NCBI GenBank assembly: GCA_048882505.1
Contig: JBHLRO010000009.1
Span: 30,001-62,000, forward strand
Direction of reading: 5' to 3'
Length of the DNA stretch: 32,000 nt
Source: Candidatus Thorarchaeota archaeon
Lineage (GTDB): Archaea; Asgardarchaeota; Heimdallarchaeia; Hodarchaeales; Hodarchaeaceae
The notes beneath the pieces are model-generated. The model ran no database searches, was not told where the DNA came from, and saw only the letters and a list, made by a program, of their open reading frames with translations. This document shows positions 6,115 through 7,900 of the stretch, one piece after another; positions within the stretch are counted from its first letter, which is position 1, and each line of letters opens with the position of its first letter. The position numbers and the translations under genes were made by a program.

Positions 6115-6642
6115 CTACCATTTTTTGTTGGCATATTTCTTTGTAATCTCTTGAGCTTTTTTCTTAAACTTCTCAGGACTATTCAAGTACTCTACGGCGG
6201 CCTTCTTATTGAAAACATCCCTAGGGTTAGTATATGCGGCATCCACATCGAACATTGCAAGGATGGAATGAATCACCGTGGTAATATTTTTGGAAGGTGA
6301 CCACCCATCGGGCCGTCCAACTAGATCGGGGTCAACGAGAGCCAAACAAATATTCCGTTTCCCTTTATATTCATCAGGCTTAGGCCAAAAGTTAGGATGC
6401 CAGATTGGAGTATGTAAACGGACGAATGGGGGTACATAGGGATAATTTCCTCCGAACTTGATTTCAAGCTTGAATTTACCCTTCTGGTAGGGAGTCCCTT
6501 TAGGCCCTTCAAGTAGCAGAGCCAGATGTTCAACAGATTTTTTTGGTCCGGGGAAGGCTTTCAGCTGTTTTATTGTGCCGCTTTTGTACAGCTTCTTCAG
6601 CTGATTATAATCTTTGGAGATGCGTTTTATTCGAATTGAAAT
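6115..6642 (-). CDS. Ubiquitin-conjugating enzyme E2 (UBC fold), 175 aa, probable non-canonical ATT start
   Basis: Hand translation: ISIRIKRISKDYNQL...LLEGPKGTPYQKGKFKLEIKFGGNYPYVPPFVRLHTPIWHPNFWPKPDEYKGKRNIC(99)LALVDPDLVGRPDGWSPSKNITTVIHSI...NKKAAVEY...FKKKAQEITKKYA. Contains KRI, GP-x2-TPY-x2-G, YPxxPP, HPN, catalytic Cys and WSP. The ORF track shows only the last 76 aa. The frame is closed upstream by TGA at 6675-6673. Confidence 0.92.
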   Translation of the reverse strand: MSIRIKRISKDYNQLKKLYKSGTIKQLKAFPGPKKSVEHLALLLEGPKGTPYQKGKFKLEIKFGGNYPYVPPFVRLHTPIWHPNFWPKPDEYKGKRNICLALVDPDLVGRPDGWSPSKNITTVIHSILAMFDVDAAYTNPRDVFNKKAAVEYLNSPEKFKKKAQEITKKYANKKW

Positions 6643-6650
6643 TGGGGTAA

Positions 6651-6656
6651 ACCTCC
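6651..6656 (-). promoter_or_regulatory. Shine-Dalgarno GGAGGT ahead of the E2 ATT codon
   Basis: Minus strand reads TAG-GAGGT-TTACCCCA-ATT. GGAGG overlaps the E1 stop and ends 9 nt before ATT 6642. Confidence 0.7.
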
Positions 6657-7900
6657 TATTTGTACTGTAAATTCAAATATATTTCGGGGACATTCTCAAA
6701 CCCCGTTACTAATACCGATTCGTGATTTCGAATGTTGAGATCCTCGAGGGATAAATCTAAGGAGACTTCATCTACTTCCGAGGAATCGATTCGAAAAACT
6801 GTTGGAGGAAATTCAGAATCAAAAGGGATTTGCTTCTTGTTAGCAATAAATTCAATGACCTTGCCGACGGAATGGCTTGGTTTTGCTCGAACTCGATATA
6901 AGGGAGACCTACGAGGCCCACACAATTCACATTCTTGATTTCGCGGTTTAGGAATCTCGTAAAACTTCCCCGTCAGGCCATTGTATATTATGTAGTTTAG
7001 TTGAAGCGTTCCAAGCTTCTGTCCATCAGAAGGTGTAAGCAAATGATGAAGAATCTTAATCGCTTCTTGAGACTGGATTGAAGCAACAACTGTGTTTATC
7101 GTGATCACTGTTGGTTCGTGGTTATCGATAATTTGAATGATCTGATCTACGGTGAATGGATTTACACCTGGGAAATGCTCTAGAAGAAGAGAGTTTGCGT
7201 AAGCCTGAACTTCCTTTATTTCGTTTATGTGCAAGATGTCAGCATTTCGACCATGGTCTTGTTCAAATTTTAGCTGCCCCTTCAATATACAATGAGCAGG
7301 ACGACGAGGAACACCCACTAAAGTACAAGCACCTAGTTGGTCCTGTTCTCGCTCGGTCAAAGGATCACATTCCAAGCAAGCGTTATGGAATGGCCATACA
7401 ACATAGATATGGCCATTGTAGGCGGCGGTGCCTGCATCTATCAATGGCTTTCTGAAGTGGATGGCACGGCGATTGAGCTCCGATCGCGCCTCAATGGAAT
7501 CTAACCCAGCAATAAATAGATCGGCTTCGTAATAAAACTGAGGAGCGAGGTCCTGTAATGCCGTATGATACCCTTCCACTTGAATGAAGGGATTTAACCT
7601 ACGAAGCTGCTTGGCTCCGTATTCGGCTTTGGAGCTCCCTTCTGGCGCGCCAACAAAGAGAACCTGTCGATTAAGATTCGAGTATTCAATCGTGTCGAGG
7701 TCCACAAGAATGAGCCTACCTACTCCGACCATCGCCAGGTTTTTCGCGATTTCCACTCCAAGACCTCCGATTCCTGCGAGGAGAACTGTGCTCTGTTTCA
7801 ATAACTCTTGGTTCCAGCCAGGAAGACGGAATTGCCTATCAAAGCGTCGTTTTTCCTCATCCGAAAGGAGTTCACTCGTGAAATTCGACCGTTGGCTCAT
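6656..7900 (-). CDS. Ubiquitin-like activating enzyme E1 (ThiF/MoeB fold with Uba2/Uba3-type catalytic Cys and C-terminal ubiquitin-fold-like domain)
   Basis: RFDRQ, GIGGLG, DLDTIEYSNLNRQ, DSIEAR, two Zn CxxC pairs (CLEC, CELC), GACTLVGVPRRPAHCI, and a ~85-aa C-terminal domain (SLEDLNIRNHESVLV). Confidence 0.93.
   Translation of the reverse strand: MSQRSNFTSELLSDEEKRRFDRQFRLPGWNQELLKQSTVLLAGIGGLGVEIAKNLAMVGVGRLILVDLDTIEYSNLNRQVLFVGAPEGSSKAEYGAKQLRRLNPFIQVEGYHTALQDLAPQFYYEADLFIAGLDSIEARSELNRRAIHFRKPLIDAGTAAYNGHIYVVWPFHNACLECDPLTEREQDQLGACTLVGVPRRPAHCILKGQLKFEQDHGRNADILHINEIKEVQAYANSLLLEHFPGVNPFTVDQIIQIIDNHEPTVITINTVVASIQSQEAIKILHHLLTPSDGQKLGTLQLNYIIYNGLTGKFYEIPKPRNQECELCGPRRSPLYRVRAKPSHSVGKVIEFIANKKQIPFDSEFPPTVFRIDSSEVDEVSLDLSLEDLNIRNHESVLVTGFENVPEIYLNLQYK

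Follow-up and report, generated by a model that had tools for sequence, protein, structure and literature searches.

Translation from AUU is known from the Escherichia coli genes infC (encoding IF3) and pcnB. There, an essential or functional gene is genuinely started at the near-cognate codon, which lies behind a Shine–Dalgarno (SD) sequence and reduces translation, and AUU is disfavoured by a factor for initiation fidelity (PMC4705826). For archaea, AUG, GUG and UUG are given as start codons in a review of initiation (PMC7531240), and in a Sulfolobus system it is aIF1 that causes the 30S complex to reject AUU (PMC4705826). In archaea, the SD is important for termination–reinitiation coupling (PMC7531240). 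Ubiquitylation systems encoded by archaeal operons have been described in Caldiarchaeum subterraneum (E1/E2/small-RING/Rpn11; PMC5654768) and in Asgard archaea (PMC9192718). Here, we analyse the gene for a ubiquitin-conjugating enzyme (E2) with a UBC fold in such an operon of a Hodarchaeales-type Asgard archaeon, which is very likely translated from an ATT at position 6642 of the window (minus strand). The window is the whole stretch of 32 000 nucleotides (nt) that was analysed; it corresponds to positions 30001–62000 of contig C9 in a 4.3 Mb genome of 83 contigs (G000).

The locus resembles the described operons in having ubiquitin-like protein (Ubl), ThiF-type E1, UBC-fold E2 with an HPN motif and a catalytic Cys, and JAB/MPN+ protease in one unit. 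Start codons were not the subject of those descriptions, whereas here the start of E2, and probably that of the JAB gene, is near-cognate. Compared with infC and pcnB, the gene is archaeal, so that the proofreader would be aIF1 instead of IF3; an autoregulatory loop such as that of infC is not evident for a ubiquitin-conjugating enzyme; and the ATT appears to be a recent, clade-restricted replacement of ATG and not a deeply conserved feature. The SD of E2 lies at the stop codon of the upstream gene, as in the archaeal termination–reinitiation pairs of Huber et al. (2019; described in PMC7531240). Those pairs overlapped and had canonical starts, whereas here a 13 nt gap is followed by AUU, and coupling may be read from the arrangement of the signals. 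In its working, the E2 start resembles the AUU starts of infC and pcnB; no published account of AUU, AUA or CUG starts in Asgard archaea was found in a literature search.

The E2 reading frame and its start

Sequences were compared with those of other genomes of the genus, which includes G016 (‘Ca. Heimdallarchaeota archaeon TM2S.58’) and Ca. Hodarchaeum mangrovi. Selection was expressed as the ratio of non-synonymous to synonymous substitution rates (dN/dS). The features of the E2 region are as follows.

6115–6642, minus strand: E2 (UBC) coding sequence, 175 codons and the stop codon TAG 6117–6115; assigned from the UQ_con match, the length of the orthologues and dN/dS
6640–6642, minus strand: proposed start codon ATT; assigned from codon alignment with orthologues and the ATT in G016
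6651–6657, minus strand: SD AGGAGGT, overlapping the E1 stop codon, 8 nt upstream of the ATT
6656–6658, minus strand: E1 stop codon TAG, 13 nt before the ATT
6343–6348, minus strand: codon TGT (6348–6346) of the catalytic Cys99, followed by TTG 6345, the first canonical start
6391–6399, minus strand: HPN motif (His82-Pro83-Asn84)
6643–6672, minus strand: ten in-frame codons preceding ATT 6642, from ATT 6672; included in the 185-amino-acid public call and probably non-coding for E2

The UBC frame is closed upstream by TGA 6675–6673 and is then open as far as its TAG. A preliminary description of this DNA had stated that the frame is open from 6672 to 6115 with its first canonical start, TTG 6345, after the Cys codon, and had placed GGAGG(T), overlapping the E1 stop, 9 nt before ATT 6642. 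The sequence bears out both statements, and the first also agrees with the listing of open reading frames (ORFs) that have ATG, GTG or TTG starts, in which an ORF of 76 amino acids from TTG 6345 is the only one in the E2 frame. TTG 6345 lies one codon past Cys99 (residues are counted from ATT 6642). The motifs Trp-His-Pro-Asn (residues 81–84) and Asn-Ile-Cys-Leu, which holds Cys99, are both upstream of it, and its product would lack the HPN motif and the catalytic Cys. With TTG 6345 as the first ATG, GTG or TTG in the frame, a complete conserved E2 is impossible from any canonical start.

The Pfam family UQ_con (PF00179) matches E2 residues 7–166 over profile positions 1–139 of 140 (E = 4.9e-26), and an alignment with human UBE2K covers residues 3–170, which would place the beginning of helix 1 immediately past the ATT. 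A full-length UBC fold including the N-terminal helix 1 is obtained only if translation starts at or before 6636–6642. The operon context (two Ubl genes, E1 and JAB) is consistent with the predicted formation of a thioester with a Ubl charged by the cognate E1.

Upstream, the 3′ end of E1 reads AAA-TAG; AGGAGGT occupies 6657–6651 and is separated from ATT 6642–6640 by an 8 nt spacer (9 nt counted from GGAGG). The 3′ end of the 16S rRNA of the same genome is ...GGATCACCTCCT, and the 16S 3′ end ...CACCTCCT pairs with AGGAGGT, which is therefore a 7 nt complement of the organism's own 16S rRNA.

Clear orthologues of E2 were found in 18 of the 21 other species of the genus and also in other families of the class. 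The comparison of start codons across orthologous loci proposed in the preliminary description was made as a codon-by-codon alignment of the E1–E2 junction. The codon aligned with ATT 6642 is ATG in 16 of 17 congeners and TTG in the remaining one, in the context Met-Ser-Ile-Arg-Ile-Lys-Arg-Ile, and an SD (AGGAGGT, AGAGGT or GAAGGT) stands at the same distance before the aligned start. G016 has ATT at this codon and an upstream sequence identical to that of G000. Ile also occupies the start position in P0123, a protein encoded on a JGI contig and 94% identical, and the Lys-Arg-Arg-Tyr preceding that Ile implies AAGGAGGT (AGGAGG). In a wider set of 157 usable Asgard loci, taken from collections of genomes and metagenomes, this codon is ATG in 123, TTG in two and GTG in one; most of the remaining loci have GTG one codon upstream or ATG two codons downstream. 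The earlier suggestion that such E2s are systematically truncated or missed in archaeal genomes is at odds with these 126 canonical codons. Most members of the E2 family in the protein collection are 175 amino acids long, and in most congeners an in-frame stop lies 1–5 codons ahead of the E2 ATG. On the strength of the congener and Asgard alignments, the ATT is derived from an ancestral ATG by a single-base change.

G000 and G016 share 91–93% DNA identity over a common 9.4 kb and are thus independent assemblies from different species. Between them, E2 has a dS of 0.33, a dN of 0.014 and a dN/dS of 0.043, similar to the values for the intact neighbours (0.078 for E1 and 0.050 for JAB). Codons 1–99, which are beyond the reach of the canonical starts, differ at 19 codons synonymously and at two non-synonymously. 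A dead gene is excluded for practical purposes by this dN/dS together with the synonymous excess in codons 1–99.

A 138 nt block at 6716–6579, which runs from the 3′ end of E1 through the SD and the ATT to E2 codon 21, has one substitution between G000 and G016 compared with about nine expected, and E2 codons 1–21 have no synonymous change. The near-invariance of 6579–6716 may be a sign that the initiation region is constrained at the nucleotide level.

Three further observations concern other E2 loci. In a more distant E2 clade (L125, L127, L129, L219–L235 and others, from other Heimdall-group families), GGTG-NNN-NNN-ATT is found where relatives have GGTG-NNN-NNN-ATG; the start in these loci is either an in-frame GTG inside the SD-like GGTG or the ATT. 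Locus L133 has AGGAGGA-AATACT-ATA and 36 codons without a canonical start. A paralogous E2 with 31% identity (G000 C18:2374–2811, locus L002) has a TTG start, and the aligned codon is ATG in four congeners.

Proposed initiation and alternative explanations

Initiation at ATT 6642 behind the SD, as put forward in the preliminary description, is strongly supported by the orthologue alignment, the G016 and P0123 sequences and the purifying selection on the frame; we assign a probability of about 0.8 to E2 being a functional gene translated from this codon. According to the proposed scheme, the G of the ancestral ATG, at 6640, would have become T in the last ancestor shared by the G000 species and its sister G016, giving ATT, and E2 would have remained the functional distal cistron of a Ubl-Ubl-E1-E2-JAB operon. 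The 7 nt SD AGGAGGU would pair with the 3′ end of the 16S rRNA and thereby bring the AUU, located 8 nt further on, into the P site, where the initiator Met-tRNA would read it despite a mismatch at the third position. Since the E1 stop is overlapped by the SD and lies 13 nt before the AUU, ribosomes that have completed E1 may start again at the AUU. The output of E2 is probably lowered relative to that of the ATG-bearing congeners, AUU being expected to be a weak initiator because aIF1 discriminates against it in Sulfolobus.

Several points weigh against this assignment. Reviews of archaeal initiation give AUG, GUG and UUG alone (PMC7531240), and aIF1 rejects AUU. The organism is uncultured, and the N-terminus at ATT 6642 is a prediction from sequence. 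Two and four codons downstream, ATT 6636 and ATA 6630 are possible alternative starts; the ATG of more distant orthologues aligns to 6636, although the SD would then be at an unfavourable distance of 14 nt. An SD-masking hairpin (6628–6679), which would support coupling, is predicted to be weak (−8.1 kcal/mol, z = −1.76); in this hairpin, which would mask the SD and AUU, the last codons of E1 pair with E2 codons 3–6, and the inner pairs are lost in G016.

The aIF1 gene has an ATG start in all 19 genomes of the genus in which it was found. A change in the fidelity machinery as the cause found no support in aIF1, the conserved loops of which are unaltered; the changes specific to G000 and G016 are limited to an insertion of three residues at the N-terminus, two conservative exchanges between Asp and Glu and, in the C-terminal helix, three residues. 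The initiator tRNA (G000 C11:13193–13297) has a normal A1:U72 pair and a GGG:CCC anticodon stem. In its intron mode, which yields many false positives, ARAGORN reported a ‘tRNA-Stop(tta)’ at C16:50366–50502 and a tRNA-SeC(tca) at C16:65699–65815 in G000.

The strongest competitor, raised in the preliminary description as deliberate under-translation relative to E1, is that the ATT is a purpose-built throttle which sets E2 below E1 and is specific to E2 in the way that AUU is to infC. We consider this possible but doubtful. AUU is a weak initiator against which aIF1 discriminates (PMC4705826), the ATT has been kept over a dS of about 0.33, and the surrounding 138 nt have hardly changed between the two species. 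Against this, the same gene in the same operon has ATG in 16 of 17 congeners; the downstream JAB gene and unrelated genes have switched as well; and a congener with ATG at E2, G009, has an equal density of candidate near-cognate starts. For these three reasons, general tolerance or drift would fit better than an E2-specific design. In addition, E2 is without a known role in initiation fidelity, so that feedback of the infC type, in which the product controls discrimination against AUU, is not apparent; the product is a UBC enzyme, and the aIF1 gene of the genus itself starts with ATG.

Translation from ATT 6672, inside the 3′ end of E1, would give a protein of 185 amino acids and is improbable. 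This codon is the first start permitted by translation table 11 in the E2 frame, and the public (NCBI-sourced) E2 proteins from the G000 and G016 contigs (P0002 and P0124) both begin there. No SD precedes 6672, however; the orthologues have 175 residues, with an in-frame stop just before the ATG in most; the ten additional residues bear no relation to those of P0123 despite the overall 94% identity; and the only difference between G000 and G016 in the ten-codon extension is non-synonymous. The absent SD, the stops in congeners, the unrelated P0123 residues and the non-synonymous difference indicate that the public call is probably ten codons too long. The existence of this call also qualifies the earlier claim that the gene is invisible to standard callers, which holds for callers restricted to ATG, GTG and TTG but not for the public record. 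A protein from a related Logan contig (P0125) is called with 134 amino acids, beginning at residue 42 and without helix 1. Truncated 76-amino-acid E2 calls were sought in the protein collection; none was found for this genome, and the short matches were mostly partial proteins.

The preliminary description had also raised an E1–E2 fusion through a +1 ribosomal frameshift at the terminal AAA-TAG of E1. We regard this as very improbable, and nothing was found that speaks for it over separate translation. The E2 frame is open ten codons back into E1 in both G000 and G016, and a shift after AAA that skips the T of TAG would enter E2; in Euplotes, +1 shifts at AAA-UAG are known. For tRNA-Lys, re-pairing on AAU in place of AAA would nevertheless be poor, and an upstream stimulator of the prfB type is absent. 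Most congeners have a stop in the E2 frame 1–5 codons before an ordinary ATG, which indicates two proteins as the ancestral state, and the would-be linker is unconserved, with different residues in P0123. The switch from ATG to a near-cognate codon is also seen at genes without an upstream overlapping frame. A search among longer proteins found no fused or longer E2-containing relatives, which is weak evidence.

It is just as improbable that loss of the start silenced E2 and left a young pseudogene or an untranslated remnant. Although no canonical start could yield an active enzyme, the dN/dS between the two ATT species is on a par with that of intact neighbours, the differences in codons 1–99 are overwhelmingly synonymous, there are no stops or frameshifts, and both the HPN motif and the Cys have been preserved; the pseudogene was rejected on the dN/dS and the differences in codons 1–99. 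A base-call error had been suggested earlier, and ATT and ATG differ by a single base; an error of sequencing or assembly is practically excluded, however, by the ATT in two independently assembled species-level genomes, by the Ile in P0123 from a third contig and by the near-cognate starts common to G000 and G016 at several other genes.

Near-cognate starts in other genes

G000 was scanned for stop-to-stop ORFs of at least 120 codons in which the first canonical start lies at least 40 codons in. This gave 200 ORFs. In 53 of them, codon usage ahead of that start is coding-like, and several of the 53 have Pfam domains that begin before it. Candidates were checked against orthologues as for E2. 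The genes are listed below with contig coordinates of G000, except for JAB, which is given in window coordinates.

C9:16886: GpmA-like phosphatase; ATT, also ATT in G016; among 19 congeners, ATG in 12 and TTG in six at this codon and ATG one codon upstream in one
C16:36368: DHH protein; ATT behind AGGAGT, also ATT in G016; first canonical start at codon 71, domain from 36; not compared codon for codon
Window 6089/6086: JAB gene; ATC/ATA behind AAGGTGA, the same in G016; ATG in congeners; Phe-Glu-x-x-Leu-Arg-Asp upstream of all canonical starts
C10:91835: ABC ATPase; CTG, also CTG in G016; ATG in four congeners
C17:79374: gene of 308 amino acids; ATA, also ATA in G016; ATG in four congeners
C11:2054: RlmE-like methyltransferase; CTG right after a stop codon, also CTG in G016; ATG four codons upstream in congeners
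C10:55558: Rossmann protein; ATT/ATA, but ATG in G016; ATG one codon further on in distant homologues (about 28% identity)
C3:140382–141368: Arf-like GTPase (loci L097–L116); CTG behind GGGGA, also CTG in G016; CTG in about nine of 20 genus members

The GpmA-like histidine phosphatase (G000 C9:16883–17647) has the ATT, or a preceding ATC, behind GGAGAGGAG and directly before Tyr-Lys-Ile-Val-Leu-Leu-Arg-His-Gly-Glu. For the Arf-like GTPase, no canonical start precedes the P-loop; the CTG comes right after a stop codon in two members, and several other members of the genus have TTG or ATG at or next to its position. The CTG behind GGGGA is likely to be the start of this gene. Taken together, the DHH, ABC ATPase, 308-amino-acid, RlmE-like and Rossmann genes have counterparts in congeners with ATG at the aligned position or, for some, within a few codons of it. 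For a GT2 candidate on C19 of G000, no orthologue was found in the genus.

In coding-like stretches before the first canonical start, ATT, ATC, ATA and CTG are enriched behind SD motifs (odds ratios of 2.1–3.5, Fisher p ≤ 1e-5), with about 35 ORFs qualifying; neighbouring codons that share one SD are counted separately, which makes these p-values optimistic and weakens them as support. An enrichment calculated over every position behind GGAGG was too noisy and was superseded. An SD is carried by 16% of unambiguous canonical starts compared with 3% of internal positions, and by five of the seven near-cognate cases that were found without an SD criterion.

As a control, a 1.6 Mb sample of the G009 genome gave 7.5 candidates with an SD and a near-cognate codon per Mb compared with 8.1 in G000. 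Its likely near-cognate starts (loci L325–L404) include ATC behind AAGGTGG in a DNA methylase gene, ATT behind GGAGGA in a GT2 gene and, in two genes, CTG right after a stop codon and behind AAGGTGA. The equal density points to a habit that is genus-wide and affects differing genes in each species, and for the same reason a relaxation of start choice specific to the G000/G016 clade was rejected.

It thus seems reasonably probable, with less assurance than for the E2 start, that in this genus, and perhaps across the Asgard archaea, roughly 0.5–1% or more of genes start with AUU, AUA, AUC or CUG, mostly behind an SD, and flip between AUG and near-cognate codons on species-level time scales. If so, the pre-initiation complex of the lineage would accept near-cognate codons when an SD anchors the mRNA, start choice would be a tunable layer of expression control, and the Asgard gene catalogues used for inferences about eukaryogenesis would contain a systematic error; Hodarchaeales-type archaea are among the closest known relatives of eukaryotes. 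At the locus studied here, calling restricted to ATG, GTG and TTG leaves a dead 76-amino-acid piece of the operon's only E2, and expression or modelling of Asgard ubiquitin enzymes would need the 175-amino-acid form. E2 very likely offers a clean case, calibrated against orthologues, of near-cognate initiation in Asgard archaea of the Hodarchaeales type. Its AUU has been kept through a dS of about 0.33; with at least eight other genes of the genome, it provides natural test cases for start-codon stringency, and a testable idea is that the amounts of E1, E2 and deubiquitylase are set through the choice of start codon.

Operon context

The operon is encoded on the minus strand in the order Ubl, Ubl-like protein, ThiF-type E1, UBC frame and JAB/MPN+. 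The members other than E2 are as follows.

8513–8863, minus strand: Ubl, first member of the operon
7919–8383, minus strand: second Ubl-like ORF
6656–7900, minus strand: E1 (ThiF family), the upstream cistron, with an ATG start; Pfam ThiF E = 5.3e-52, dN/dS as given above
About 5208–6089, minus strand: JAB/MPN+ protease, downstream of E2; candidate near-cognate start ATC 6089 or ATA 6086

The canonical starts in the JAB frame, GTG 6023, TTG 6017 and ATG 6014, all lie past the conserved Phe-Glu-x-x-Leu-Arg-Asp motif, and GTG 6023 is GTA in G016. In congeners, the ATG is 12–16 residues before this motif; that of locus L018 aligns with ATA 6086.

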